Part shown: positions 2,784 through 18,009 of the stretch, piece by piece | How positions within the stretch are numbered: position 1 is the first letter of the stretch | How the letters are laid out: each line of letters begins with the position of its first letter | Source of the DNA: Candidatus Methanomethylophilaceae archaeon | GTDB lineage: Archaea > Thermoplasmatota > Thermoplasmata > Methanomassiliicoccales > Methanomethylophilaceae | Assembly: GCA_944321505.1 (NCBI GenBank) | Contig: CALULN010000027.1 | Location: forward strand, 10,672-74,671 | Direction of reading: 5' to 3' | DNA: 64,000 nucleotides | Notes under the pieces: model-generated | Database searches by the model: none | Told to the model about the DNA's origin: nothing | The model's input: only the letters and a program-made list of their open reading frames with translations | Program-made: the position numbers and the translations under genes

Positions 2784-4226
2784 ATGAGTGACATGGACGG
2801 AAAGAAGCAGAAATCCCACCTGAAGGGGGGGACGCTCGCGGCGCTGGCTGTCGCCGCAATCATGATCGTCTGCCCTCTCGCGCTTGCAGACCTCTCCGAT
2901 GCCGAGGAGGCGACCGTTTCTTACACGGAGATATCCGCAACCGATTTCCTCGCCCTTGAGGACAACGGGGTCATCGACCTCGGGGACCAGAACTACTCGA
3001 TAACCGATCCCAGCGGGATAGTCAATATAAGGCAGAACCTGACCATCAAAGGCAACGGAAGCAACTATCTGCATGCCCGCCTGGTGATGGACGCCATCCT
3101 CGACGACGGCGACTCGGAGACACTGACCGTCAGCATCGAGGGCATCATCCTCGACGGTAAAGGATACACCGTCGCGAATCAGCACCCTTGCATAGGCATC
3201 CACTCCCAGAACCATGGAAAGAATGGGGTGGAGACCTCCGTGCGCCAGCTCGACCTCACAGTCAAGGACTGCACCGTGCAGAACTTCGAGGGCAAGGGGA
3301 TGTACATCACCAACGGACAGAAGGTGACCGTGGAGGGGTGCACCTTCAACAATGTCAGAGGCTCCCAGGAGACCATCAACTACGGCGACCACGCCATCGA
3401 CCTGTGCATCGGCGGTATGGAGAACGCGGAGATCAGGATAGTCGGCAACACCTTCGTCGGCATGTCCGGGCAGAACACCTGCATACAGATCCAGCAGCGC
3501 AACCCCAACAGCAGCACCGACGACAACCCCGGAGACTGGTGGGGATTCGATGTGGATACATCCATCAAGGGCGCGTACATCGCAGGCAACGACTTCACCC
3601 AGTCCAAATCCCCCGCCGACGTGAGGCTGGGAAGCTGGCCGAAAGCGGGCGACGAGAGGACGTTCACCAAAGCGTTCCCCGCCACCATCGTCGCGGAGAC
3701 AGCCACCAAGGTCGTGTCATGCACCGAGCTCGGAGGCAAGGGGAACAACTCCCCTCTCCAGGACATGAACGTGGAGCTGAACGCCGGTGCGGAGTTCTCC
3801 GTGGACGGTGCCTACGACTATGAGACAAAGGAGACCACCCTCGACTACAACCTGGAGTCGGGAGTCGCCACTCTGTCCGGCTACGTCCCGGAGTACATGA
3901 CCGTCAACGTCGCCGAGGGAGCCACCGCGGTTGCGATAGGCCTGGAGAACCACGGCACGGTCAACTCCATCGACGGCAATGTCATCGGGACCCCCGTCGA
4001 TGGCGACGCGGTCACCGACGCCGACACCCGAAGCCCCTGCCGACGAGCCGAAGAACGACACCATGACCTTCGTCGCGGTCATCGCCGTGATCGTGGTCAT
4101 CGTGCTCCTCATCGTCATGATCGCCGACCGGAGAGCCTGAAACCCATCGACGCCTACGGGCGGCTGAAACCACTTAACACTCACACATCCACGAACGTCA
4201 TCGGCCGGAAGCCACTTTCCCTATGA
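2784..4226 (+). CDS. Secreted/surface right-handed beta-helix (PbH1-like) repeat protein, frameshifted near its 3' end as sequenced
   Basis: N-terminal hydrophobic signal (LAALAVAAIMIVCPLALA). Beta-helix-type repeats (TVKDCTVQNFEGKGMYITNGQKVTVEGCTFNNV, IRIVGNTFVG). The expected TM anchor MTFVAVIAVIVVIVLLIVMIADRRA* sits in the +1 frame and ends at 4140. Confidence 0.7.
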   Translation: MSDMDGKKQKSHLKGGTLAALAVAAIMIVCPLALADLSDAEEATVSYTEISATDFLALEDNGVIDLGDQNYSITDPSGIVNIRQNLTIKGNGSNYLHARLVMDAILDDGDSETLTVSIEGIILDGKGYTVANQHPCIGIHSQNHGKNGVETSVRQLDLTVKDCTVQNFEGKGMYITNGQKVTVEGCTFNNVRGSQETINYGDHAIDLCIGGMENAEIRIVGNTFVGMSGQNTCIQIQQRNPNSSTDDNPGDWWGFDVDTSIKGAYIAGNDFTQSKSPADVRLGSWPKAGDERTFTKAFPATIVAETATKVVSCTELGGKGNNSPLQDMNVELNAGAEFSVDGAYDYETKETTLDYNLESGVATLSGYVPEYMTVNVAEGATAVAIGLENHGTVNSIDGNVIGTPVDGDAVTDADTRSPCRRAEERHHDLRRGHRRDRGHRAPHRHDRRPESLKPIDAYGRLKPLNTHTSTNVIGRKPLSL

Positions 4227-5050
4227 ACCGTCACATGCACTCTCGGAGACGCATGAGGCTGGTCTTCGCCTTCCTGTCGGCGATCTTCGCGGCACTGACA
4301 TCCGTTTTCGCGAAGATCGGCATCAAGGATGTAGAGTCCGACCTGGCCACCGCTCTCCGCACCGTCGTGGTTCTGGCAATGGCATGGCTGATGGTGCTTG
4401 TCGTCGGCTCGTACGATACCATCGACGACATATCCGACCGCACGCTGGCCTTCCTAATCCTGTCCGGCATGGCCACCGGCGCCTCGTGGCTGTGCTTCTA
4501 CCGCGCGCTGCAGGAGGGCCCGGCATCTATGGTCGCCCCCATAGACAAGCTGAGCATACTGTTCACCGTCATCTTCGCGGTCATCGTGCTGAAGGAGCGC
4601 ATGTCGCGCAGGTCGCGGGCAGGCCTGGCCCTCCTGGTCGCAGGCACCATGGCGATGCTGCTCTGGCGCGATCCGACCGATCCGGAGCCGGGGGGTGTTA
4701 CCGCATATAATCCCGATTACATGTTCGTCCCACTCCGTACGGACGTATTCCGAACGGCATCCGGTCGGTATCCTCCTTCCGGAACGTATCGAAGGGCCGG
4801 AACTCAGGAGGATGGCCGGCGACGGCGCATACCGCCGCGGAATTTCCATGAGACGGCGATCATGGAAGGGGCCGGCGGCTGCCAGAGGCTGGACTTGCTT
4901 CCGCACAGGTCCGCGCCAAGGGATTCTGCAAGAGAGGCTGATGCACCGTCTGCGTGGACGAGTGCACGGATGTGCACTGTCCCGCACAGGGATGCGGAAG
5001 AATCCGGAATCGCCATATCAAGAAGGCGATTATCCATTCTGACCCTATGA
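4223..5050 (+). CDS. Small EamA/DMT-family transporter (~4 TM); the ORF runs on into a decayed GNAT gene
   Basis: The EamA-like part is MRLVFAFLSAIFAALTSVFAKIGIK...LLVAGTMAMLLW (alternative ATG at 4253; domain ends about 4680). The remaining ~120 codons are non-membrane, low-quality sequence that overlaps the GNAT relic. Confidence 0.7.
   Translation: MNRHMHSRRRMRLVFAFLSAIFAALTSVFAKIGIKDVESDLATALRTVVVLAMAWLMVLVVGSYDTIDDISDRTLAFLILSGMATGASWLCFYRALQEGPASMVAPIDKLSILFTVIFAVIVLKERMSRRSRAGLALLVAGTMAMLLWRDPTDPEPGGVTAYNPDYMFVPLRTDVFRTASGRYPPSGTYRRAGTQEDGRRRRIPPRNFHETAIMEGAGGCQRLDLLPHRSAPRDSAREADAPSAWTSARMCTVPHRDAEESGIAISRRRLSILTL
4715..5035 (+). pseudogene. Decayed GNAT acetyltransferase paralog of 2249..2680
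   Basis: Fragments spread over three frames match the intact GNAT: LRTDVF / LRREVF, ARGW / ARGW, AQVRAKGF (DNA caggtccgcgccaaggg in both copies), and MRKNPESP / MRKNLESP. Confidence 0.6.
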
Positions 5051-5124: not shown

Positions 5125-5379
5125 GGACTCCTGCGGCATGAATGACGCGGCAGATATTGCGAGACAACATACACGTGCAGATCGGCCGATGGTGACCCGG
5201 GAAGCAGCCTCTGATGATTGATCCGGGGTTCAAACCAGATGTGTACCGAAAATCAGATTATGCGGCTGCCGGGCCCAGCCGCTTGAAACATCGACCCGCC
5301 CATTTGCGATCTGAACGGTCGCATCGTAGTGTCATGACACACATGTTTCTTCTTTACGAATGTTGTTATTGCAAAACGT

Positions 5380-5398
5380 GTTGGATGTATCATCCAAT
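5380..5398. promoter_or_regulatory. Inverted repeat GTTGGATG-TAT-CATCCAA abutting the ATG of 5397..5825
   Basis: Perfect 7-8 bp arms. The same palindrome is found at 6340-6358 next to the start of the convergent gene. Confidence 0.55.
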
Positions 5399-5825
5399 GC
5401 AAACTACCCCCCGCACCGAAGCAAACGTTCCGGCCGCCCGCATCAATGATCATTGCGAGTGTTTAAGATGCGGCAAGGTGTGGAAAAGCAAAAAGAAGGT
5501 TCCGACAAGGTGCCCGAAATGCGGAACCAAGTACTGGAACACACCGGTCAAAGAATTCTCATGCAGAAGATGCGGGCATTCATGGAAAGCACGGATCATG
5601 GATTATCCGAACATCTGCCCATGCTGCAAAAGCCACAGATGGGACCGGCCGTCGACCGAGTTCGCAGTTCAACGCGACGTTATAGACGAAGACGAGGTGC
5701 TGGATTTGTACCAGAACGGTCAAGGACTCGTATCCATATCAATAAAGACCGGATTCAGCATCGACAGAGTGATGGGTGTGCTTAGGAGAAATCAGAAAGA
5801 CTGCAGAATCAGCATCAGGATCTGA
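5397..5825 (+). CDS. Protein with two zinc-ribbon repeats and a C-terminal resolvase-like HTH
   Basis: Two modules: CLRCGKVWKSKKKVPTRCPKCGTKYW and CRRCGHSWKARIMDYPNICPCCKSHRW. They are followed by DEVLDLYQNGQGLVSISIKTGFSIDRVMGVLRR. I chose the start at ATG 5397 because the shared palindrome abuts it; the track ORF starts at 5214. Confidence 0.6.
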   Translation: MQTTPRTEANVPAARINDHCECLRCGKVWKSKKKVPTRCPKCGTKYWNTPVKEFSCRRCGHSWKARIMDYPNICPCCKSHRWDRPSTEFAVQRDVIDEDEVLDLYQNGQGLVSISIKTGFSIDRVMGVLRRNQKDCRISIRI

Positions 5826-6339
5826 CCTTCCAACGGACGGTCTTGCATGAAGGGCACCGGCGCGCGGAATCCCCGTTCTTGGAGAACCAGCTGTGCCCGC
5901 ATTTCTGACACTTGTTGAAGCCGCCCTCAGAGTCCCATCTGAGACTCTGACAGGAGGGGCATCTCTTCGGCTGCGCCACCTGTTTGATCCAATGATGGCC
6001 GCAGATCCTGCAGACTGCGGATTCCGGATCCTTGAACCACGAGTCCGAATGACATGAAGGACATCTTATCGGCGTCCTATCGCTGCGTGGGACCCAGCTG
6101 TATCCACAGCGGCGACAGCATAACTCCGTACGGACGGGAGAAGCGCCGCAAACCGGACAGATGGAAGAAGGGGACATATGATACTCGGTGCCGCAGATCC
6201 TGCAGACTACCTTGCCGGCCCCTTCGGCCCACCGGGCCGTATGACAACTGGGACACCGCTTCGGCATCCCATCCCCGCTAGGCACCCATGCGTGCCCGCA
6301 TCTGCTGCAGCAGAGGAAACACGTCTCCCCCTCTTCCAT
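5815..6339 (-). CDS. Protein made of five tandem zinc-ribbon repeats
   Basis: Modules: CSRCGHAWVPSGDGMPKRCPSCHTARW, CRICGTEYHMSPSSICPVCG, CRRCGYSWVPRSDRTPIRCPSCHSDSW, CRICGHHWIKQVAQPKRCPSCQSLRW, CQKCGHSWFSKNGDSARRCPSCKTVRW. ATG 6339 is preceded by the palindrome and by a TTTATAAT box (6361-6368). The track ORF starts at 6495. Confidence 0.6.
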   Translation of the reverse strand: MEEGETCFLCCSRCGHAWVPSGDGMPKRCPSCHTARWAEGAGKVVCRICGTEYHMSPSSICPVCGASPVRTELCCRRCGYSWVPRSDRTPIRCPSCHSDSWFKDPESAVCRICGHHWIKQVAQPKRCPSCQSLRWDSEGGFNKCQKCGHSWFSKNGDSARRCPSCKTVRWKVRS

Positions 6340-6358
6340 GTTGGATGATGCATCCAAC
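6340..6358. promoter_or_regulatory. Inverted repeat GTTGGATG-ATG-CATCCAAC abutting the ATG of 5815..6339
   Basis: Perfect 8-bp arms. It lies between a TTTATAAT box (minus strand, 6368-6361) and the ATG at 6339. Confidence 0.55.
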
Positions 6359-6652
6359 TCATTATAAACAAAACCCAGATTGGATAGATGCTTACCAAAG
6401 ACACAGCATACCCGCATCGCAATCGGTCTTTCCGATGCATATCGTCCCCGCATCGTATTCGGACAGACGATGCCCGTCTCCGACTCCGAATCCACACCGG
6501 AATTTCATGTGCCCACACTGCGCACCATGCCTCGGACCGGCATCCCCGGGGATCCAGCCCCGATGCGGCACCATCTGCATTAAATATCGGAACCAGAATA
6601 GAATCGCCGGTTATATGTCAGATGGAATTTCTGAAGGTAACGGTGCGTAAAG

Positions 6653-7918
6653 ATGGACGGCGCTAGCATCACCATCCTGTACGCATGCATCATTGTAGTG
6701 CTGACTGTCTGCTCCGCGTTCTTCTCCCTAACGGAGACCGCCTTCACCGGCGCCAACCGCGTCAGACTCAAGAAGATGGCCAACGACGGCGACAAGAGAG
6801 CCGACCGCGCCCTGGCCATGCTGGAGGATTACGACAAGTTCCTCACCACCAACCTGATCGGCGTCAACGTGGTCAACATCGCGTCGACCACCGTGGCATC
6901 CGTCATGTTCCTGGCGCTCTTCGGCGACCTGGGAAGCATCGTGAACATCGTGGTCATGACCCTGGTGTCTCTGACCTTCTGCGAGATTATCCCCAAGTCC
7001 GTGGCCAAGAAGAGCCCCGAGAAATGGTGCGTGAAGACCTGCGGCGTCTTCGCTGTCCTGCTGAAGATCCTCTCCCCCGTATCCTGGCTGTTCACCAAGC
7101 TGACCAAGGCCATCGGCGAGGACGAGAACGTGTCCATGAGCGACGAGGAGCTGGAGGTCCTCATCGACGAGTGCGAGGACGACGGCATCCTCAAGGACAC
7201 CGAGAGCGAGCTCATCAAGTCGGCCATCAGGTTCGACGACGTCCAGGTCAGGGAGCTGTGCGTTCCAAGGATGGACGTCACCGCAGTCCCCCAGGTCGCC
7301 ACCGAGCAGGAGCTGGCCGATATCATCTCCGCCACAGGGTTCTCCAGGATCCCTGTGTACAACGGCACCATCGACGACATCATCGGCGTCGTCTATGCCA
7401 AGGAGTACTACGCCAAGGAGCACAAGGGAGAGCCCTGCGGCATCCAGGATATCATGAAGCCGGTCAAGTACGTCCCCGAGTCCATGAGGGCCTCGGAGCT
7501 CCTGAGCGACTTCCAGAGGACCAAGGTCCACATGGCGGTCATCCTCGACTCCTACGGCGGGACCATCGGCATCATCACGCTGGAGGATGTGCTGGAGGCC
7601 CTGGTCGGAGAGATATGGGACGAGAGCGACGAGATCCAGGAGGACATCATGTCCAACACCGACGGGTCCCTCACCGTGAAGGGATCCGCCAGCGTCTTCG
7701 ACGTCATGGAGGCCCTGGGAAGGGACTTCAACCTCGGAGGGTACGACGAGCACTCCGTCACCGGGTACATCATGTACCGCATCGGGAGGCCTCCCCTCGC
7801 AGGGGACGAGGTTGACACCGACGGCGTCGTGTTCCGCGTAACCTCCGTGGACGGGCACCGTGTGAAGGAGTGCAGGGTCGTGGACCACCGCGCTCCCCCG
7901 GACGAATCCGCCGAATGA
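6653..7918 (+). CDS. CNNM/CorC-HlyC family transporter (DUF21 TM domain, CBS pair, CorC_HlyC domain)
   Basis: 421 aa. N-terminal TM block, then a central CBS-pair region (IPVYNGTIDDIIGVVYAKE), then a C-terminal TLEDVLEALVGEIWDESDE...GDEVD region, as is typical of the family. Confidence 0.9.
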   Translation: MDGASITILYACIIVVLTVCSAFFSLTETAFTGANRVRLKKMANDGDKRADRALAMLEDYDKFLTTNLIGVNVVNIASTTVASVMFLALFGDLGSIVNIVVMTLVSLTFCEIIPKSVAKKSPEKWCVKTCGVFAVLLKILSPVSWLFTKLTKAIGEDENVSMSDEELEVLIDECEDDGILKDTESELIKSAIRFDDVQVRELCVPRMDVTAVPQVATEQELADIISATGFSRIPVYNGTIDDIIGVVYAKEYYAKEHKGEPCGIQDIMKPVKYVPESMRASELLSDFQRTKVHMAVILDSYGGTIGIITLEDVLEALVGEIWDESDEIQEDIMSNTDGSLTVKGSASVFDVMEALGRDFNLGGYDEHSVTGYIMYRIGRPPLAGDEVDTDGVVFRVTSVDGHRVKECRVVDHRAPPDESAE

Positions 7919-8330: not shown

Positions 8331-8648
8331 TTAGGCATTCGATCCGCTGATTCAATAATCTGAGAAGTCCGCAGCACATGATGTGCCGGATGCGACAGTA
8401 GAACGGAATCATCCCCTGCAACCTACATCAGCATTCCGAGACGTCCGTTCTTCCCACCGATTCGATGCGCCGGTAATATGCCAACGCTTCACGATGTGCA
8501 TCGACCATGTGGGAAAGAACATCACATTCCGCATTGCTGCAGATCGTCCGGCGATTCAAACGTTCGGCTTCCGATCCGCGGGTCGCAATTGGATCGGCGG
8601 GTGGAAAAAGAAATGGGGGGGGGGAATCCCCCTTAGATTCAATCGGTT

Positions 8649-8985
8649 TTGGTACGGAACAGCAGCATGCCGAAGTATGCCAGCATGATGCCCGCAGCCA
8701 CACCGGCACCGCAGAAGATGGCTATGATCGCCAGATCAGTACCGCTTTCGCCAGGGGTTGACGTATCGGACGACGAGCTTGCGGATGCGTCTTCTGTGGC
8801 CGGGGAAAGGTGCGAATGCCTCAGGTGCGGCAAAGCCTGGATGAGCAGGGAAGGCGTGCCCTTGAGATGCCCGAAATGCAGCACCCGATATTGAAACGGG
8901 CCGCCGAAGAACTTCACCTGTCTTAAATGCGGACATCAGCGGTTTCAGAATCCTCGAGTACCCGAACATGTGCCCTTCCTTACCG
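8649..8985 (+). pseudogene. Decayed paralog of the two-zinc-ribbon gene 5397..5825
   Basis: CECLRCGKAWMSREGVPLRCPKCSTRY*NGPPKNFTCLKCGHQ aligns with CECLRCGKVWKSKKKVPTRCPKCGTKYWNTPVKEFSCRRCGHS. TGA 8892-8894 replaces the Trp codon. After a frameshift, EYPNMCPSLP aligns with DYPNICPCCK, and cysteines are lost. Confidence 0.55.
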
Positions 8986-9081
8986 AGAACAAGGCATTTT
9001 CATCTATTATCGTAAGATAGGTAAACAAGCATCCAACACTACTTAGTCTTTTATCAGAAACTCTAGTTGGACATATCATCC

Positions 9082-10464
9082 ATGAACGCCGTGTCGGTGA
9101 AACTCACGGTATCAGCCGTTGTCCTGGTGCTTGTCACGGCTTCGCTGCCGTTCCTGTCGTTCTCCGCCCCTCCTGTTCAACAGAAAGAGGGTGTGATGAT
9201 AGACTACGGCTCCTACAGCGTCGACTGGGTGGAGACCTCCTTCGATGACGGTATGACAGGCGTCGAGGCTCTGGAAGCAGCCTGCGGCATAGAGGGCTAC
9301 GGGTTGGAGAAGGACTCCGCCGGGAACATCGTCTCCGTCAACGGAAAGGCGAACCTTATCGGTATGACCTGGGGGATGTACGTCCTCCGGGATTCCGTGT
9401 GGACTGCGGTCGACAATCCTTCCTCTTTCACTCTGGAGAACGAGACCATCATCTCCTGGGCCAGAGTGTCCTCCGAGGACGGCATCATGCCCGGCACCGA
9501 CGCCACCGGCAACATGTACTACTCCTACGGATCCGAAGGACTCAACCGCAATGGCGAGAGGCTGCGCATCGCAACGCTGTCGCCGTCGGTGACGGAGACG
9601 CTGGCTGCGGTGGGATGCGCCGAGTACATAATCGCCACCGATATGTACTCCGACTATCCGGAGAGCATCGTCGAAGGCCAGACAGACGGAAGCATCCAAC
9701 TGGTCGGCGGATACACCGACCCCAGCTTCGATCTCATCATATCCGCTGCTCCGGACATCGTTTTTCTTGATGGAGGGGTTGGCGATCACCTGACGGTGGC
9801 GAAGAAGCTCCGCAAAGCCGGGATCGACTGCGTCGTCCTCTACGACATAGAGAACGTGTACGACGTGCTCTGGAACATCTGGATAGCTGCCTCGGCTATG
9901 GGCTTCTCCGAGAGAGGATGCGATGCCATAGAAGGAACCAGGGAGACCATTTCCACCGTCGCCGGGATCGCGGATCTCAGCGGGAAGAAAGTCTTCGTGA
10001 GTCTGGGCACCGGGTCCACGCCCTACACAACAGGGAGCGGGACCTACATGGACAGCATGCTGGAGATCCTCGGAGCGGACAACATCTTCGGGGACAGCTA
10101 CGACTGGTTCATGGTAGACAGGGAGCAGGTGTACACAAGGCAGCCGGACATCATCATAATCATCCTGGATTCGGAGACGCCTGTCGATTCCAGATCCAAA
10201 TACCAGCAGGTTGTGAGCGGCATCGACGACCTGTGGAAGAGGACACCTGCGTACGAGAACAGCGCCGTGTACGTCTTCTCGGAGGACGCCGCCGATCTGC
10301 TCTCCCGTCCCGGTCCGAGGATGTCGTCGGCGATGGAGCTCCTGGCCAAGGTGATGGACAGTGAGTCGTTCATCGAGAAGGACCCTTGGGACCGGGTCTT
10401 ACCCTACTATTCGGACGATTACCGCGACCGCCTCACATATCAGAGGGAGGGCACGTTCCTATGA
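9082..10464 (+). CDS. ABC substrate-binding protein: DUF4430/transcobalamin-like module fused to a BtuF/FhuD-type (cluster A) binding domain
   Basis: TM/signal, then GVMIDYGSYSVDWVETSFDDGMTGVEALEAACG...IVSVNGKANLIGMTWGMYV (DUF4430-like), then RIATLSPSVTETLAAVGCAEYIIATDMYSDYPE (BtuF-like). The track start 9067 is TTG; the first ATG is at 9082. Confidence 0.8.
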   Translation: MNAVSVKLTVSAVVLVLVTASLPFLSFSAPPVQQKEGVMIDYGSYSVDWVETSFDDGMTGVEALEAACGIEGYGLEKDSAGNIVSVNGKANLIGMTWGMYVLRDSVWTAVDNPSSFTLENETIISWARVSSEDGIMPGTDATGNMYYSYGSEGLNRNGERLRIATLSPSVTETLAAVGCAEYIIATDMYSDYPESIVEGQTDGSIQLVGGYTDPSFDLIISAAPDIVFLDGGVGDHLTVAKKLRKAGIDCVVLYDIENVYDVLWNIWIAASAMGFSERGCDAIEGTRETISTVAGIADLSGKKVFVSLGTGSTPYTTGSGTYMDSMLEILGADNIFGDSYDWFMVDREQVYTRQPDIIIIILDSETPVDSRSKYQQVVSGIDDLWKRTPAYENSAVYVFSEDAADLLSRPGPRMSSAMELLAKVMDSESFIEKDPWDRVLPYYSDDYRDRLTYQREGTFL

Positions 10465-12344
10465 AGGCAGCCGTCATGGCAGTGGCGGCGCTGCTGCTAA
10501 TCATCGCCATCCCCGGATTCTCCGCTGCCGAAGATGGAGAAGCTGAGGAACCGTCGATCCTCCTGGATACCGGCGACGGATGGGATGCGTGGTATGACAT
10601 CGTCCCGGGATCAACTCTGCTGGAGACGGTTGTCGCTTCCCTGGAGAAATCGGGACATACCGTCGAGACCTCCGGAGACACTGTCGTCTCCATCGACGGG
10701 CTCTCGGGCACGGCATTCGGAACCTCCCAATCCGCATGGTACGCATACGGATGGTCCGGGGACTCATGGGATGCGGGCAGGACGGACATGTCCGAAAGGT
10801 ACACCGGAGGGAGCATCGCCGTGATGCTGACCGCCTCCGGCACCATCAAAACCTCCGCCACTCCGCTGTACCCCGACACTTGGACCTCATACAGGGGATC
10901 GCAGACCTCCCCCGGCATATCAGGCTCCCACGGACCCGGGGAAGCGGCGCTTCCCGTGGAATGGTACGCCACATACACCACGGGCAATGTGGACTCCTCT
11001 CTCCTGTACTCCGACGGATTCGTATATCACACGACAACCGGCAACACATCCTCCTACGGGAACGATTCGTTCCCTCACTTATACTGCATAAGCTCCGAGA
11101 ACGGATCCATCGTATGGAGCCAGAGGCTTGATTCGGATCCGGAAGCGGTGACGCTGGCATCTCCCGTCATCATGGGCGACTGGCTGATCATCGGTTCATG
11201 CACGGGGCATGTGTACCTGTTCGACCGTTTCAGCGGAGACGTGCTAAGAGAACTCGTGCCCGACGGCGACGAGCCTTTCCTTGCGGACATAAGCCTCACA
11301 GACACCTACGAGCTCGACGGCCTCGAAGGCATGGGCGGCCAGGTGGTGAGAGGAGGAATCACCAACATCGCCGTCTATTCCGGTGCGCTGTTCTTCGGGA
11401 CCGACGACGGCACCCTGAGATGCTACACCGTAGACCCTTACGCAGGATTCGATGAGGTATGGAGGTTCTGTCCCGAGGAGAAGGGGACCATGTACTTCCA
11501 CCCACCCGCAGTGACCAAGGTGGGGGACCGCACCGTGGTCCTGATGGGAAGCTATGCGGGGATGCTGCACTGCGTGGATGCCGTGGACGGCTCCCTGATA
11601 TGGTCCGTTCCTGCGATAGACCTGACTCCCGAGGGGGGCAGGTACCCCGGATCCGTGTCATCTGTGGTTCCTGTCGGAAACGAAACCGCCCTGGTGACAT
11701 GCAAAGACGGGGAGATGTCGCCTTTCACGGGAACGCTCTCGCTGATAGATCTGAAGGATGGGAGCAGGATATGGAGCATTGACGCCATATCCACAGCACC
11801 GACCTGCATCGAAGGGATCGTCTACGTGTACCTGTCCCCGTCGTCGGCAGGGAGCGGGAAGATAACGGCGGAGGACGGCTCCGAGATGGAGCTGGACTAC
11901 GGATACTACGCCCTCTGGGCCGACTCCGGTGAGGTGATCTGGTATCATGCCAGCTCCGCAACGGTGAGCGGGAGCGCGGGCATCACCTTCGCCGACGGCA
12001 GGCTGTACTCCACCGATTACTCCTCCGGCATGCAGTGGCCCTATGGAGGCGGAGTCACCTGCCTGGACGCCGATACCGGCAACCAGGTATGGAGGGTCCA
12101 GCTGGAGCCGTACTCCAGGAGCTCGTACTCCATGGTGTCGCCGACGGTGGTCGACGGCATGGTGCTGGTAGCCAACGACTACGGTGCCGTATACTGCATC
12201 TCGGACACCCCCGGAGTGATCAGGGAGGTCACAGGGGACATCCGCTACGAGATCACGGGCATCTTCGACTGGTCATGGATCATGCTGATGGCCGCCACGG
12301 CATGCGTCATTCTGATGGCGGCGAGATTCTACAGAGGTGTTTGA
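10461..12344 (+). CDS. Surface protein: signal peptide, DUF4430-like module, PQQ/BamB-like beta-propeller repeats, C-terminal TM anchor
   Basis: MKAAVMAVAALLLIIAIPGFSAA signal. DUF4430-like GSTLLETVVASLEKSGHTVETSGDTVVSIDGLSG...AWYAYGWSGDSW. Blade motifs GSIVWSQRL, GSLIWSVPA, GSRIWSIDA, GEVIWYHAS, GNQVWRVQL. ATGA overlap with the upstream gene. Confidence 0.7.
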   Translation: MKAAVMAVAALLLIIAIPGFSAAEDGEAEEPSILLDTGDGWDAWYDIVPGSTLLETVVASLEKSGHTVETSGDTVVSIDGLSGTAFGTSQSAWYAYGWSGDSWDAGRTDMSERYTGGSIAVMLTASGTIKTSATPLYPDTWTSYRGSQTSPGISGSHGPGEAALPVEWYATYTTGNVDSSLLYSDGFVYHTTTGNTSSYGNDSFPHLYCISSENGSIVWSQRLDSDPEAVTLASPVIMGDWLIIGSCTGHVYLFDRFSGDVLRELVPDGDEPFLADISLTDTYELDGLEGMGGQVVRGGITNIAVYSGALFFGTDDGTLRCYTVDPYAGFDEVWRFCPEEKGTMYFHPPAVTKVGDRTVVLMGSYAGMLHCVDAVDGSLIWSVPAIDLTPEGGRYPGSVSSVVPVGNETALVTCKDGEMSPFTGTLSLIDLKDGSRIWSIDAISTAPTCIEGIVYVYLSPSSAGSGKITAEDGSEMELDYGYYALWADSGEVIWYHASSATVSGSAGITFADGRLYSTDYSSGMQWPYGGGVTCLDADTGNQVWRVQLEPYSRSSYSMVSPTVVDGMVLVANDYGAVYCISDTPGVIREVTGDIRYEITGIFDWSWIMLMAATACVILMAARFYRGV

Positions 12345-13461
12345 TACGGGGAAGACGGCAGAGGCTCTGAGGAAAGGTTTCAGAGGGATGCGCAAAGACA
12401 TGGAGGACACCGGCGGGGACATCCCGCTGAAGAAGCGGAGGTTCCGCATAGTCATGTCCGTGGGGCTGTTCCTCTGCGTCGTGATGTTCCTCATCTCGAT
12501 AGCGGCGACGCCCAGCGGGCTGCTGGGAGTGGACGATGCTCTGAGGGCGCTGGTATCCGCCATCGAGAAGGGCGGGGTGAACCTCACGGAAATCGAGAGC
12601 AGAGTATATATCGGAAGCCTGCCCCGGACGATAGCCGCCGTGGGGGTGGGTGCCGGGCTGGCGGTTGCCGGATGCATCTTCCAGGCGCTCATCAGGAACC
12701 CGATGGTGGACCCGTACATCACCGGAGTGTCCTCAGGAGCCGGATGCGCCGCCATCGGAGTCATGGCATTGGGCGCCACCATACCCTTCCTGGACGCCAA
12801 CAGCATGTTTATCGTCCCCCTAGCCGCAATCCTCGGCGGTCTCGCCGCCTTCGGCATCACCGTTGCCGTCGCCGAAGGCGCCGGAGGGTCCGCCACCAAT
12901 TACATCCTGGCGGGAGTCATCGTCGGATTCGCCTTCACCGCGTTCCAGACCATCTTCCTCTCGCTTTCGAAAGACAACCTGACCGACGCAATGGGATGGC
13001 TGTACGGATCGTTCTACGGCATAGACTGGGAGACCACGTTCCTGGTTCTGGTGCCCGCTCTGGGCATATCCGCTGTGTCTATGGTCTGGGCCAGGGAGTT
13101 CAACCTGTTCATGGCCGGAGAGGAGCAGGCCGAGCAGCTGGGTCTCAACGTCAGGAGGTTCAAGAGGTTCATGATGGTTGTCGCGTCCGTGCTGACCGCC
13201 ATCTGCGTCGCATTCGTGGGGGTCATCGGATTCGTCGGCCTCGTCATACCGCATGCATGCAGGATGATGCTCGGAGGGGACCATCGCCTCATCATGCCCG
13301 CATCCCTTGTCCTGGGGGCGTGCCTGATGATGCTGTCCGATCTGCTGGCCCATCTTGTCTTCTCGCCGACGGAGCTTCCCGTGGGAGCCATCACCGCTCT
13401 GATCGGCACACCGGTGTTCGCCTACATGCTGATGAGGAGGGGTCGCGGATATGACGCCTGA
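12337..13461 (+). CDS. FecCD/BtuC-family ABC transporter permease
   Basis: Multi-TM protein whose C-terminal part (ELPVGAITALIGTPVFAYMLMRR) is typical of FecCD/BtuC permeases. GTG start overlaps the upstream stop; the start is uncertain. Confidence 0.85.
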   Translation: MFDTGKTAEALRKGFRGMRKDMEDTGGDIPLKKRRFRIVMSVGLFLCVVMFLISIAATPSGLLGVDDALRALVSAIEKGGVNLTEIESRVYIGSLPRTIAAVGVGAGLAVAGCIFQALIRNPMVDPYITGVSSGAGCAAIGVMALGATIPFLDANSMFIVPLAAILGGLAAFGITVAVAEGAGGSATNYILAGVIVGFAFTAFQTIFLSLSKDNLTDAMGWLYGSFYGIDWETTFLVLVPALGISAVSMVWAREFNLFMAGEEQAEQLGLNVRRFKRFMMVVASVLTAICVAFVGVIGFVGLVIPHACRMMLGGDHRLIMPASLVLGACLMMLSDLLAHLVFSPTELPVGAITALIGTPVFAYMLMRRGRGYDA

Positions 13462-14263
13462 CTGCCCCTCCGGGAATCTGCTGGATGTCAGGGACCTATG
13501 CATTACCTTCGGGGACAGGCAGGCCCTGAAGGGCGTCAGCGTATCCGTCAGGCACGGCTCGATGGTGGGGCTGATCGGTCCCAACGGATGCGGGAAGTCC
13601 ACCATGATGAAGTGCATCTCCGGGATCCACAAGAACTGGACCGGTGACATCAGCATCGACGGCACTGACACCCGCACCCTCAGGCCCTCCGAGATGGCCC
13701 GCACCGTGGCCACCGTTCCCGCAGAAGCCGGGCAGACATTCGGAATGACTGTCGCCGAGATGGTCATGCTGGGAAGATACCCCTATGTGGACACTCTCTG
13801 GTGGGAGAAGCCGGAGGATGAGAGGGCCGTCCTGAACGCTCTGGAGACCTTCGGCCTCTCCGCTCTCCGCAGAAGCAGGGTCTCGCTCCTCTCATCCGGA
13901 GAGAGGCAGAGGGTGCTCATCGCTAAAGCGTATGTCCAGAAGCCGAAGCTCATGCTGGTCGACGAGCCCACATCGCATCTGGACATGCGTTACAAGCTGG
14001 AGGTCATGGAGTACCTCCGCTCAATGGCCGGTACCGGCATGACCGTCATGGTAGCCGAGCACGACATATCGCTGATGGCGAGGTACTGCGACAGCTGCAT
14101 CATCATGAAGCAAGGAGAGGTCATCGCCACCGGCCGTCCGGCGGAGGTGATTGACGAGGACCTCGTCCGCAGAGTGTACGGTGTGGAGTCCCGCATCGGA
14201 CTGGATGCCGACGGGGAGGTGTATGTGCTCCCGAAGAGGAGCGTGAAGGAGGCAACGTTATGA
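13451..14263 (+). CDS. ABC transporter ATP-binding protein (BtuD/FepC-like)
   Basis: Walker A GPNGCGKST, signature LSSGERQR, Walker B LMLVDEPTSHLD. It overlaps the genes on both sides. Confidence 0.9.
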   Translation: MTPDCPSGNLLDVRDLCITFGDRQALKGVSVSVRHGSMVGLIGPNGCGKSTMMKCISGIHKNWTGDISIDGTDTRTLRPSEMARTVATVPAEAGQTFGMTVAEMVMLGRYPYVDTLWWEKPEDERAVLNALETFGLSALRRSRVSLLSSGERQRVLIAKAYVQKPKLMLVDEPTSHLDMRYKLEVMEYLRSMAGTGMTVMVAEHDISLMARYCDSCIIMKQGEVIATGRPAEVIDEDLVRRVYGVESRIGLDADGEVYVLPKRSVKEATL

Positions 14264-17200
14264 AGAGGATTGCAGCGGCGGTCGTTCTCGCGGCAGTGTT
14301 CGCTTCCGTCGCATTGGGCTTCGTGGCCATCTCCGAAGAAAGCGACGGCGCTTCTGGGACAGAGATAAGGCTCTTCGTGGAGAACGCGGACGGAACATAT
14401 GCGGAGACCGTCGTCGATTCGGCAGGCAGCGTCAAGGATGTTATCGACCGCGGCCTGGAGAATCTGGGCATGAGCATCGCCTACGACAGCTCGGGAAGGA
14501 TAGAATCGGTAAACGGGGTCCGCACTTCCAACGGAGAAACGTGGAACATCCATCAGTACATGCCGTTGGGCAACCCCGGCTGGGCCACCGTGGGATTCGA
14601 ATCCAGATACGACTCCATGCTGATCTCCGGCACCACATACTGCCTGCACACGTCCTCCAGATTGGTGGAGAGCGGCAGCAACCTGTATGAGAGCCCCGAG
14701 TTCAAACCCGAATCCGACGGGTACGTGTACATAAGATTCGTCTACGGATACGACGACCCAGGCAACCCGGAGGTGTCCAAGGCATTCACCCCGGAGATCA
14801 GGAAGAACGGATTCTGGCTCAAGGGAACCGGGACCAACATGGGAGAGGTCCTGGTCGATGCGATGGAATCCAACGGGTTCGAGGTGCAGACGATATCGGG
14901 AGAGTCAGGTGGCAACGATCTCAAATTCTGGATCACGTCGCTGTTCGGCATCGAAGGGGACACCAGCGTCGGCGATAACGCCTGGGCGTACTGGTCGCAG
15001 TATGCGTACGTGAACAACGAATGGGGCTACAACGATTTCACCCTGGGATACTACGACCCCGGCGTCTACAAGTACATCGCCGTGGTGTACATCATCTCGG
15101 TAGATATGGGGATTGATACCGGAGGGCCGCTTCCCGATGTGAGGAACATCGAGATACTGGAGAGCACCCCGGATGTCACGTTCAGAGATGCCGATGGCGG
15201 CGTCCTGGGCACCGTCGAAGTCCAATACGGCGCTCAGGTGGACGCTTCCTCGATTCCCGACCCACCCGTGAAAGAGGGCATGGAATTCGCCGGATGGGCA
15301 TCCGGGAATGGCGACGTGTCCATTCAGATAACCGAGGACACCGTGTTCAACGCGACATACGTGCAGACAGGCAGTGGCAAGCACACCGTGAGCTACTATC
15401 TGAACGAAGCCCACACGATCCTGCTGCACAGAGAGCTCGTCGAGAGCGGCGGCAAAGCCGCCTATTCCGCCGAACCGTACATGATGTCTACCAGAGAGAG
15501 CGAGTACACCTTCACAGGGTGGAGCGCGGACCTGTCTTCGGTCACGCAGGACATCGGGGTCCACGCTGTGTTCGGGGAATCCCCGCACAGATACCCTGTC
15601 ACATTCATCGGATACGACGGAACCGTCATCGACGAGGTGATGGTCGACTACGGCTCAGGAGTCGGATCTGTGCCGACGGCACCGGAACGCAGTCCCGACG
15701 TGGACAGCGTCTACACCTTCAAGGGGTGGAGCAGCACCCTTGCGGGATACGCCCCTGTGGACCTCGACACGATCGAAGGGAGCACGGTCGTCTACGCATA
15801 CTATGAGAAGTCTGTCAGGCAATACACCGTGACGGTGTACTACGAGGGTTCGGTCCTCAAAGAGATCTCCACCCCCTACGGCAGAGGACTCGGAGACGCG
15901 TGCTACACCACCCTGTTCGACGACGGCTTCGCCAAACTGTATTCCGACGAGGATCTGAAGACACCTTTCCCCTCGACCAGGGGGATCTACGGAGACAGAA
16001 CGCTCTATGCCGAGAAGATACCGGGAGAATATAGCGTGAACACGGACAGCGGAGGGAATATGACGGGCAACAATGTGACGATTGTCCATGATGCGGCCTC
16101 TGCCTCCAAGCTTCCCGAAGTGGATGGCATAATCATTGCCGCCGATCTCTCCCAGCTCCCCTCGAGATACGCCGTATTCTCCGCAGAGACCGTTAGAGCA
16201 CTGGATAGCGCATTGGGAGAGTATGCACTCGTGGGGATCCTCACCAGCAAGGGACTCGTCGCCATGAAGGCAGGGGACATGCTTCAGCTCTGCGAATCCA
16301 ACGACGGCGCGAACCTGACATTCAGGCTGATGAACCCGTCCAACAATGCCGCAACGAACAATGCCCTGAACGGGTTGAACTACACAGACAGGATCAAAGC
16401 CGAGGTCCTTGCCGGCACCGAATCGGTGGACCTGGCATCCGAAGGGATCCTGGTGGTGGTCGGCATCAGAGCGTCCCTTGGTGAAGGACAGACATCCGAC
16501 GATGCCGCCGCATGGAGCATAAGCACCCGCGGAGCGGTCACATCCCTCAAGGCCTGGAATGCGGGAGGGATGACCTACTGCGAGACGGATGCTCCGCTTT
16601 TCCTGGCCTTCGGCTGGACCGAGTCAGCAGCCGAAACCGATGAGCAGCTCCCTGATGTCCCCTACGGAGATGTCGGCTATTCCAAAGGAGGCTCCGGAAC
16701 CGAGGACGATCCGTACCGTTCCACCTTGGAGAGGATGACTCTGGACTCCCACAGATCCGTGATGTGGGTCCCTTCCGCATTGGAGGGACACCCCGTCACG
16801 AGCATAGCCGACCAGGCGTTCACCGACCTCAAGGGAGTGCACCACCTCGTCATCCCGGACACCGTCGTATCGTTCTCCCTGTCTTCGCTGCTGGGATCCT
16901 CCGTCTCCGACGTGTACTTCCTGGGCGACAAGCCCGAATTCACGGGCACCCTGCCAGACGGCATCACGATTCACCGGGCTTCCGATACGGAGGGATGGGG
17001 CGGATACGACGCAGTGACGCTGGAGATCGGCACATACTCAATCAAAGGCATGTCGTTCGAATACTACGTGGTGGACGGGAACGCCGTACTCCATAGATTC
17101 CTGACAGGCACTGACGCCGCTCTGCCCGCCACCGTCACCACCGGCGGCACCGAGTATCCGCTGACGATCATCGGCGACTCCGCATTCAGGGACAGCGAGA

Positions 17201-18009
17201 TCAGGACCATCAATCTGCCGGCAGGCATCACCGACATACTGACGAGGGCGTTCTACGGAGCGGACAGCCTCTCGAGGATCAACTTCCCCTCGGACAACTC
17301 CCTCGTATACATCTGGAACGAGGCATTCAGAGGATGCACTCTGCTCACCACAATGGAGCTCACCGACGGCATCCGCTTCCTGGGATTCGAATCCTTCAGA
17401 AGCTGCTCCCAGCTGAGATCCGTGGCTATCCCGGACAGTGTGAAAGCGATCGGGGACGGTGCATTCTACGTCTGCGAGAATCTCGGATCCGTTGTCATCG
17501 GCACCGGGATCGACGGAATCCCCGACAGATGCTTCGCATACTGCACACTGCTGGAGAGCGTCACCCTGCCCGACAACATCGTCTCAATCGGCAACGAAGG
17601 GTTCCTGAAATGCTATGAGCTGTCATCGATCGACCTGAACAGGGTGAAAACGATAGGCAGAGATGCTTTCGCGCTCTGCAGCACCATCGACTCCGTCACC
17701 ATGGGAGCGGATCTCGAATCCCTTGGCGCCGGAGCATTCAGAGAGTGCTCCAATCTGGTGTCGATGACCGTGTACTGCGAGCCCCCGGAAGGGATGGATG
17801 CGGCATTCGACAATGCCTCGGCCATAGCCATCTCCGCTGACCCATCGGTTCTCGCCAAGTGGCAGGAAGCCGGATACAATGCGGAGGTGATCCCCCAGGA
17901 GACGCCCGAGGATCCCGCGGGACCCACCGGGCAGACTTTGCTCATCACTGTGTGCCTCATCGCCGCATTCGTGGCGATTGCATTCGTGGCCATCAGGCTG
18001 CGCAGATGA
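14260..18009 (+). CDS. 1249-aa adhesin-like surface protein: DUF4430-like module, Listeria-Bacteroides (InlB B-type) repeats, BspA-type leucine-rich repeats, C-terminal TM anchor
   Basis: DUF4430-like GSVKDVIDRGLENLGMSIAYDSSGRIESVNGVRTSNGETWNIHQY. Repeats ending FAGWASG, YTFTGWSAD, YTFKGWSST. LRR_5-type units (IGDSAFRDSEIRTINLP, IWNEAFRGCTLLTTMEL, IGDGAFYVCENLGSVVI, IGNEGFLKCYELSSIDL). Tail LLITVCLIAAFVAIAFVAIRLRR. Confidence 0.8.
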   Translation: MKRIAAAVVLAAVFASVALGFVAISEESDGASGTEIRLFVENADGTYAETVVDSAGSVKDVIDRGLENLGMSIAYDSSGRIESVNGVRTSNGETWNIHQYMPLGNPGWATVGFESRYDSMLISGTTYCLHTSSRLVESGSNLYESPEFKPESDGYVYIRFVYGYDDPGNPEVSKAFTPEIRKNGFWLKGTGTNMGEVLVDAMESNGFEVQTISGESGGNDLKFWITSLFGIEGDTSVGDNAWAYWSQYAYVNNEWGYNDFTLGYYDPGVYKYIAVVYIISVDMGIDTGGPLPDVRNIEILESTPDVTFRDADGGVLGTVEVQYGAQVDASSIPDPPVKEGMEFAGWASGNGDVSIQITEDTVFNATYVQTGSGKHTVSYYLNEAHTILLHRELVESGGKAAYSAEPYMMSTRESEYTFTGWSADLSSVTQDIGVHAVFGESPHRYPVTFIGYDGTVIDEVMVDYGSGVGSVPTAPERSPDVDSVYTFKGWSSTLAGYAPVDLDTIEGSTVVYAYYEKSVRQYTVTVYYEGSVLKEISTPYGRGLGDACYTTLFDDGFAKLYSDEDLKTPFPSTRGIYGDRTLYAEKIPGEYSVNTDSGGNMTGNNVTIVHDAASASKLPEVDGIIIAADLSQLPSRYAVFSAETVRALDSALGEYALVGILTSKGLVAMKAGDMLQLCESNDGANLTFRLMNPSNNAATNNALNGLNYTDRIKAEVLAGTESVDLASEGILVVVGIRASLGEGQTSDDAAAWSISTRGAVTSLKAWNAGGMTYCETDAPLFLAFGWTESAAETDEQLPDVPYGDVGYSKGGSGTEDDPYRSTLERMTLDSHRSVMWVPSALEGHPVTSIADQAFTDLKGVHHLVIPDTVVSFSLSSLLGSSVSDVYFLGDKPEFTGTLPDGITIHRASDTEGWGGYDAVTLEIGTYSIKGMSFEYYVVDGNAVLHRFLTGTDAALPATVTTGGTEYPLTIIGDSAFRDSEIRTINLPAGITDILTRAFYGADSLSRINFPSDNSLVYIWNEAFRGCTLLTTMELTDGIRFLGFESFRSCSQLRSVAIPDSVKAIGDGAFYVCENLGSVVIGTGIDGIPDRCFAYCTLLESVTLPDNIVSIGNEGFLKCYELSSIDLNRVKTIGRDAFALCSTIDSVTMGADLESLGAGAFRECSNLVSMTVYCEPPEGMDAAFDNASAIAISADPSVLAKWQEAGYNAEVIPQETPEDPAGPTGQTLLITVCLIAAFVAIAFVAIRLRR

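Follow-up and report, generated by a model that had tools for sequence, protein, structure and literature searches.

A promoter palindrome and a zinc-ribbon/helix-turn-helix protein as candidate operator and repressor of a corrinoid regulon in Methanomassiliicoccales

Introduction

Why would two convergent genes that encode little besides zinc ribbons each carry the same palindrome hard against the start codon? The question is raised by a 64,000-nucleotide stretch ('the window') of contig CALULN010000027.1 from a Candidatus Methanomethylophilaceae archaeon of the order Methanomassiliicoccales. Here gene A (5397..5825, plus strand, 142 amino acids), which specifies two Cys4 zinc ribbons followed by a C-terminal three-helix helix-turn-helix (HTH) domain, faces gene B (5815..6339, minus strand, 174 amino acids), which specifies five zinc ribbons and no HTH; the 3' ends of the two overlap by 11 nucleotides (nt; 5815–5825). 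Methanomassiliicoccales are methanogens of the gut and rumen that rely on corrinoid proteins for their methyl-reducing metabolism, and archaea both make and import corrinoids in large amounts. The reading that we favour, with a probability of roughly 0.6, is that across Methanomassiliicoccales the palindrome serves as operator for a corrinoid (vitamin B12) regulon and that the two-ribbon/HTH protein, represented in the window by A, is its autoregulated repressor.

Results

Three copies of the palindrome in the window

Each of the two genes is preceded by one copy of the inverted repeat. Operator 1 (GTTGGATGTATCATCCAAT, 5380..5398) reads GTTGGATG-TAT-CATCCAA(T), with its final two bases overlapping the ATG of gene A, and operator 2 (GTTGGATGATGCATCCAAC, 6340..6358) is the perfect GTTGGATG-ATG-CATCCAAC, abutting the ATG of gene B at 6339. 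A position-weight matrix (PWM) built from the sites of homologues scores them at 29.2 (at 5381) and 28.8 (at 6341), respectively. A first-pass annotation, made from the letters of the window, had already reported this pair, and the two sites are indeed the only good matches in the 64 kb; it had overlooked a third full site. This operator 3 (TTGGACATATCATCCAT, 9067..9083) is degenerate, scores 18.1, and overlaps the ATG at 9082 of a gene for a Peripla_BP_2 substrate-binding protein, the first gene of the sole Btu-like operon in the window. Outside the three sites the best PWM score in the window is 8.9. Matches to the palindrome with up to three mismatches number four in the 64 kb, two of them carrying three mismatches, as compared to 0.38 expected in shuffled sequence. 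The isolated TTGGATG half-sites that had been listed as further operator candidates occur at chance frequency (12 found, 9.0 expected), and the one upstream of a YqaJ gene is noise, the PWM scan being empty near 47.5 kb.

Putative promoter elements accompany all three sites. The TATA box of gene B (TTTATAAT, 6361..6368, minus strand) is present as the first-pass annotation had it, lies 3 nt from operator 2 and predicts a transcription start about at the ATG, i.e. a leaderless message; the same geometry is repeated at the orthologue of gene B in locus L004 (TTTTAAAG). The TATA-like element of gene A (TTGTTATT, 5363..5370, plus strand) is AT-rich, a weak match predicted from the sequence, and located 10 nt upstream of the operator core, and a TATA-like box predicted in the same way (CTTTTATC, 9048..9055, plus strand) is located 11 nt upstream of operator 3, so that these two elements keep an equal spacing of 10–11 nt to their operators. 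Since in the lineage of the window gene A, gene B and the binding-protein gene all have an ATG that touches the site or overlaps it, and since the TATA box of gene B is only 3 nt away from its site, the three messages are probably leaderless or carry leaders of a few nucleotides.

The short start codons at 5397 (A) and 6339 (B) are supported as the right ones. The orthologue of B, protein P0003 (60% identical), begins at the corresponding ATG, and the operator immediately precedes it: in L004 the gene is preceded by TTTTAAAG-AG-TTGGATGTATAATCCAA-T-ATG, and a stop codon lies just 5' of that ATG. Homologues of A are likewise short at the N-terminus and have the site in front of the gene, and one gene caller, too, chose the 142-residue form of A. 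The longer open reading frames (ORFs) starting at 5214 and 6495, which would have made the palindromes intragenic, were rejected on these grounds.

Conservation of the palindrome across the order

Scanning genomes with a seven-sequence alignment of the family yielded 62 loci. Most of these are labelled as Methanomassiliicoccales lineages or as unclassified Thermoplasmata metagenome-assembled genomes, and about a dozen are labelled as gut bacteria or other methanogen orders; because the loci of this dozen carry the same gene and the same site, we take them to be mis-binned contigs. In the loci assigned to Methanomassiliicoccales by GTDB, the site (with up to three mismatches) stands just upstream of the two-ribbon/HTH gene in 48 of 49 cases, the proteins being 28–42% identical to A, and sites with up to two mismatches number 46 in 514 kb of loci as compared to none in shuffles. 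The consensus is TTGGATG-TAT-CATCCAA. Homologues carry the form TTGGAT(G)-N3-(C)ATCCAA, the core of which, TGGA-N9-TCCA, is invariant, and both orientations relative to the gene are seen (TTGGATGTATAATCCAA and its complement TTGGATTATACATCCAA).

Is such a repeat read as double-stranded DNA, or does it fold? With an 8-bp stem and a 3-nt loop directly abutting the ATG of the window genes, the repeat could fold at the message's 5' end into a hairpin of RNA (or single-strand DNA) that controls translation or stability and not transcription initiation, and in most relatives a Shine-Dalgarno-like element (GGTG or GTGAT) and then the ATG follow 4–13 nt past the site. The pattern of variation speaks against this possibility: across 26 distinct site variants, arm positions 2–5 (TGGA/TCCA) do not vary, and 44 arm changes are single-sided and break pairing, as compared to one compensatory change. 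Non-compensatory change together with an invariant core argues for a site that is read by a dimeric protein and not for a hairpin. The position of the promoter elements points the same way. A TATA-like octamer is found in 31 of the 46 target promoters examined, its end lying 15–23 nt before the site in 20 of them and 0–7 nt before it, as at gene B, in nine. Archaeal transcription usually starts about 23–25 nt after the TATA box; the start is therefore predicted to fall inside the site or just behind it, and the full hairpin would usually go untranscribed. The repeat also matches no Rfam family, and we consider a hairpin function very improbable. Conservation and predicted geometry instead support an operator role for the palindrome, positioned over the TATA box and the start or in the interval that separates them, much as the first-pass annotation had proposed for gene B with its implied leaderless transcript.

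At several binding-protein promoters, operators occur in tandem, 5–13 nt apart (L112, about 5145–5185; L121, about 1195–1240; L160, about 2600–2655; L070, about 7504–7550; L128, about 4386–4440), an arrangement that suggests cooperative binding.

Genes that carry the site

We searched metagenome contigs for the exact 17-mer, took the first ORF within about 50–70 nt on either side of each of the 120 stretches recovered, and compared these ORFs, once clustered, with Pfam. The 17-mer stands 0–50 nt before genes of the target families. Transport is represented by 32 Peripla_BP_2 binding proteins (in two clusters), six FecCD permeases, four ABC_tran ATPases and four PQQ_2 propellers; synthesis and salvage by CobN, a ChlI-type chelatase, TP_methylase and DBI_PRT/CobT-like proteins, twice each, and by single copies of CbiX, CbiD, BtuR/CobO and a SirC-like NAD_binding_7 protein. 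The two-ribbon/HTH gene itself is among the targets four times. The 32 binding proteins share a median pairwise identity of 26% (maximum 63%), and this strong divergence implies that the 17-mer has been retained independently many times.

Six recurrent contigs with the 17-mer beside a Glt_symporter-family ORF were set aside as chance: the contigs have bacterial-looking features, a G+C-rich hairpin and a run of T next to the site, and no corrinoid gene is located there. The remaining stretches look like chance matches in unrelated sequence.

Many of the binding proteins in the putative regulon carry a dockerin-like GNANNDDYI module after the signal anchor (for example in L073, L074, L091, L097, L120 and L129; Pfam detects Dockerin_1 in six), which is unusual for ABC substrate-binding proteins.

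The distance between site and ATG (0–50 nt) leaves no room for a riboswitch, and Rfam scans of the window and of 18 target loci at the gathering threshold detected one tRNA only and no cobalamin riboswitch.

The range of targets also bears on the scope that the first-pass annotation had given to the system, namely a self-contained two-gene ribbon module with a private operator, possibly tied to mobile elements or defence. The convergent pair with its two perfect operators is kept in the relative L004, where B is 60% identical and the convergent orthologue of A is interrupted by the contig end, and in the near-identical strains L001–L003. However, the pair is seen only in this lineage (the window and L001–L004) and is missing from the 62 loci that the genome scan yielded for other lineages, and the operator is common to dozens of B12 transport and biosynthesis genes and to the neighbouring transporter operon. 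Nor is a mobile or defensive context apparent: the neighbours are ordinary chromosomal genes, PADLOC returns no match to a defence system, PHROGs phage families match marginally only (0.006 and 0.001), and among 2.9 million viral contigs there are only four matches, partial and ribbon-only. The distribution of the site largely refutes a private module, to which we give hardly any credence.

Over 5397–5814, compared with L001 and L003, A differs by seven substitutions (five of them non-synonymous), B by one and the flanks by 0–1, the strains being very close. P0002 shows a tandem duplication of 12 residues within the non-coding DNA ahead of B.

The Btu-like operon and its surroundings

The operon behind operator 3 lies on the plus strand. 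Its first gene (9082..10464; Pfam 8e-21) encodes the BtuF-like substrate-binding protein, which has a signal anchor and clusters with metagenome binding proteins whose genes bear the exact operator. A PQQ_2 beta-propeller protein follows (10386..12344, assigned by Pfam), with homologues in L137, L145, L158 and L167 that bear the operator, then a FecCD/BtuC-type permease (12337..13461; Pfam 1.1e-81) and a BtuD-like ABC ATPase (13451..14263; Pfam 1.7e-31). The other large ORFs of the window are ordinary chromosomal genes, with no second transporter of this type in the ORF census, and of the 80 families that match in the window, the 25 most frequent include no cob/cbi family.

Directly upstream of the operon lies a decayed paralogue of A (8649..8985, plus strand). 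The first-pass annotation had suspected a decayed third copy at this position, and the sequence is a genuine pseudogene: 8811–8975 is 71% identical at the DNA level to 5454–5620 of gene A, the first ribbon is intact, the second is truncated with its second knuckle gone, an in-frame stop (8892–8894) takes the position of a conserved Trp, and there is no HTH. A 92-residue minus-strand ORF (8639–8917) that runs antisense to the decayed copy, and the product of which would end in a hydrophobic helix and a basic tail, is most likely spurious, the opposite strand of the pseudogene.

Linkage between genes of this kind and the transporter is also found elsewhere. In L052, L053, L054 and L060, an orthologous propeller-FecCD-ATPase operon (61–68% identical) is directly followed by a seven-ribbon gene, the site and a two-ribbon/HTH gene. 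This gene order, taken together with the decayed copy in the window, indicates that regulator-type genes and the transporter have been linked repeatedly, in differing arrangements.

The seven-ribbon proteins, whose genes separate the two-ribbon/HTH gene from the Btu-like ABC operon (L052, 3956–5194; L053, 2364–3674; L054, 2405–3715; L060, 938–2353), have in common a conserved tail, about 167 residues long (LWS.G.G..L.Y...YLW.DG.P...).

In the window, the operon is directly followed by a gene (14260–18009) for a 1249-residue adhesin-like protein with BspA-type leucine-rich and Listeria-Bacteroides repeats. An adhesin beside btuFCD is reported for strain LGM-RCC1 in passages of a genome survey of the order (PMC10804542), and the arrangement in the window matches it. 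A Fic/DOC-family protein gene (108–1214) occupies the left end of the window.

The ribbon/HTH protein and its family

We counted ribbon modules by a regular-expression scan of all six frames of the window. C-x2-C...C-x2-C modules number two in A and five in B, one of the latter being shortened and lacking the Trp residues, and these counts, like the ORFs and the 11-nt overlap in the ORF table, are as the first-pass annotation had given them. One further module lies inside the decayed copy (8817–8879); beyond A, B and this remnant, the six-frame scan of the 64 kb finds none of the conserved C-x-[RK]-C-G..W...R-C-P-x-C type. Six more loose C-x2-C...C-x2-C matches in the window all lack the conserved residues of the module.

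The modules are zinc ribbons by Pfam: A matches PF23470 (Zn_ribbon_PF0610) with 35.4 bits against a cut-off of 26, and B matches RUBY_RBDX with 40.6 bits over four stretches, as well as DZR. Weak matches to HypA-like domains, a metallochaperone zinc site, are found in both proteins. The AlphaFold2 (AF2) model of A has a mean predicted local distance difference test score (pLDDT) of 83.6, with the two ribbons and the three-helix bundle both above 90; the helices of the HTH (residues 98–106, 111–118 and 122–132) reach 93–95. The single-sequence AF2 model of B is poor (pLDDT 59), so that the ribbon assignment of B comes from sequence only.

The last 60 residues of A have no Pfam match. PDB profile searches place residues 90–135 with small DNA-binding domains: 2LVS, a domain of a Sulfolobus CRISPR-repeat-binding protein (2.5e-5), the gamma-delta resolvase DNA-binding domain (6.8e-4) and the PAI subdomain of Sleeping Beauty. 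The first ribbon of A matches PF0610 (PDB 2GMG, 8.3e-5) in the same search. Foldseek superimposes the resolvase HTH with a root-mean-square deviation of 1.5–2.1 Å over 40 residues, with E-values that are all weak (>0.1) for these small domains and supporting only. Profile search, Foldseek and AF2 thus agree on the 'resolvase-like HTH' named by the first-pass annotation. The likeness is limited to the 40-residue HTH, the Resolvase domain itself being absent from A in Pfam and NCBIfam.

Homologues were collected by exhaustive HMMER search with A, a word-indexed search having returned A alone. The family comprises 817 clusters at E≤1e-3, 110 of them at ≤1e-10, and its members have two to seven ribbon copies each. 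Most carry a tail of about 65 residues after the ribbons, in which the motif Y..G.GC..I[SA]..TG..LS.V is found and which ends in [P/I/L]-[R/K]-[M/I/V/L] at the C-terminus; other members consist of ribbons only, like B, or have a longer tail. The HTH motif, in the form Y..G.GC..I[SA]..TG..LS.VI, is kept among the homologues that carry the site. Databases list the homologues as 'hypothetical protein' or, in IMG, as 'predicted Zn-ribbon and HTH transcriptional regulator'.

Family-wide, an invariant Trp follows each zinc knuckle, which makes four per two-ribbon protein. The canonical two-ribbon/HTH gene is often convergent to a riboflavin cluster, as in L018 (4423–6439) and in 36–38 of the 62 genome loci; this cluster consists of two DMRL_synthase-family genes, a RibL-type CTP_transf_like gene and DHBP synthase, with the manganese efflux gene MntP on the other flank.

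Which protein, then, reads the palindrome? The two-ribbon/HTH gene has the site at its own promoter, the targets of the site form a coherent set, and the gene is linked to these targets in some genomes, a combination expected of an autoregulated factor and its regulon. The palindrome could instead be a genuine corrinoid operator bound by a different factor, with A, B and their multi-ribbon relatives as ordinary members of the regulon that might handle cobalt or zinc, traffic corrinoids, or bind RNA by means of their Trp-bearing ribbons. The tie between A and the site is comparative only, gene B has the best operator of the window yet encodes no HTH, and both the weak HypA-like matches in A and B and the frequency of ribbon-only and seven-ribbon relatives in the family would suit such roles. 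Against a different binder stand the confident HTH of A with its resemblance to DNA-binding domains, the retention of the site before 48 of the 49 ribbon-HTH genes, and the repeated linkage of ribbon-HTH genes to the Btu-like operon; moreover, no other HTH family is found among the 25 most frequent families downstream of the sites. We regard binding by another factor as possible, though unlikely.

Discussion

We propose the A-type protein as the best candidate for the repressor of the B12 regulon; the architecture of its family is uncharacterised and the regulon was previously unassigned. According to this proposal, genes of corrinoid uptake, salvage and biosynthesis would be placed under TTGGATG-TAT-CATCCAA, an A-type dimer would occupy one half-site with each of its HTH domains, and the bound protein would block recruitment of RNA polymerase. 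Repression is suggested by the position of the site relative to the TATA box and the predicted start, either between the two or on the start itself: in archaea, an operator in such a position is typical of a recruitment-blocking repressor and not of an activator. The targets in the window would be gene A itself, the convergent gene B and the BtuF-like/propeller/FecCD/ATPase operon, with B as a lineage-specific, co-regulated, ribbon-only paralogue. The first-pass annotation had cast the HTH-bearing protein as the binder that co-regulates both genes, and A retains its place as the obvious candidate.

The signal would be corrinoid (or cobalt) sufficiency, sensed possibly by the Cys4 ribbons or by a partner such as B. 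In a more specific version, two-ribbon/HTH proteins would be B12 sensor-regulators in their own right, the tandem Cys4/Trp ribbons sensing corrinoid or cobalt and switching operator binding, and B-like paralogues would act as co-regulated partners, antagonists or cobalt buffers; we offer this version tentatively and consider it on balance doubtful.

Several points weigh against our proposal. The whole case is comparative, and the tie of A to the site follows from the logic of autoregulation and linkage, so that another factor may bind. A has no Pfam match to a canonical B12-binding domain at E≤1. It also diverges from its family, with GL for GC in the turn of the HTH and a C-terminal IRI in place of PRM, and lies away from the riboflavin cluster that neighbours the canonical homologues; for both reasons the main regulator of this genome may be a second paralogue that lies elsewhere, beyond the window. 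The TTGGATG site is missing from three-ribbon/HTH paralogues, so that DNA specificity is a property of the subfamily. The metagenome sites were picked by the exact 17-mer with the taxonomy of the contigs unchecked. Finally, CbiX, the SirC-like protein and CobN/ChlI may serve the synthesis of F430 or sirohaem, and 'B12' may thus be too narrow a name for the regulon.

Three-ribbon/HTH paralogues in L057 and L061 have a different perfect palindrome, ATCTATA-AA-TATAGAT, over the TATA region (about 3900–3920), which may be their own operator.

How does the proposed system compare with known ones? The cobalamin riboswitch regulons (Rfam RF00174) control the same genes, namely btuFCD-type transporters, cob/cbi, cobT and btuR, and the presumed logic, shut-off at corrinoid sufficiency, is alike. 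While those regulons use a structured leader RNA, here the element is a 17-bp palindrome in promoter DNA, and the system would be a protein-and-DNA functional counterpart of the bacterial riboswitch regulons. Control of B12-related functions by protein and not RNA is seen in the bacterial regulators CarH/LitR, AerR and PocR, which have a B12-binding domain or an AraC-type sensor and act in light responses or propanediol use; A is without such a domain. Closer in concept is the 'CBL-box', a DNA signal that Rodionov et al., in J Biol Chem in 2003, when Methanomassiliicoccales genomes did not exist, reportedly proposed for a hypothetical archaeal B12 regulator with no protein assigned to it. The CBL-box, too, is said to be a DNA site upstream of archaeal B12 genes with no riboswitch involved; the difference is that our site comes with a particular protein family as the candidate to bind it.

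In its mode of action the predicted repressor would resemble MDR1, Phr, LrpA and NrpR, which repress archaeal genes by occupying the TATA box or the DNA just behind it and thereby preventing the recruitment of polymerase. Shared features would be autoregulation, tandem operators at some promoters, and a palindromic operator that, judged in our case from predicted starts, covers the start or lies between it and the TATA box; the protein family is unrelated and the domain architecture new, and repression is in our case a prediction. With PF0610 (PF23470, PDB 2GMG), A shares a rubredoxin-like zinc beta-ribbon joined to a DNA-binding fold. In 2GMG, however, a single ribbon (chain residues 68–97 of 105) follows an N-terminal DNA-binding domain, which we take to be a winged helix, whereas in A two ribbons come first, the HTH is C-terminal and of the resolvase/Cbp1-like three-helix type, and there are invariant Trp residues. 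Serine recombinases (gamma-delta/Tn3 resolvase) and 2LVS provide the best profile and fold matches to residues ~90–135 of A, but A lacks the recombinase catalytic domain and the likeness is that of a 40-residue DNA-binding module.

Our literature searches turned up no account of this site, of what the ribbon/HTH family does, or of a B12 regulator of Methanomassiliicoccales. The B12-related passages of a survey of 243 Methanomassiliicoccales genomes stress expanded BtuFCD systems and name no regulator, and B12 exchange is proposed there to shape the niche of these archaea and the methane output of ruminants (PMC10804542). A conserved 17-bp operator with a named candidate regulator makes the underlying control circuit directly testable, and the candidate itself, with its resolvase-like HTH behind tandem zinc ribbons, represents an architecture that is new for DNA binding. 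The operator enables prediction of the regulon in any genome of the order, which would assign a function to dozens of divergent BtuF-like proteins and to their propeller and dockerin-bearing partners.

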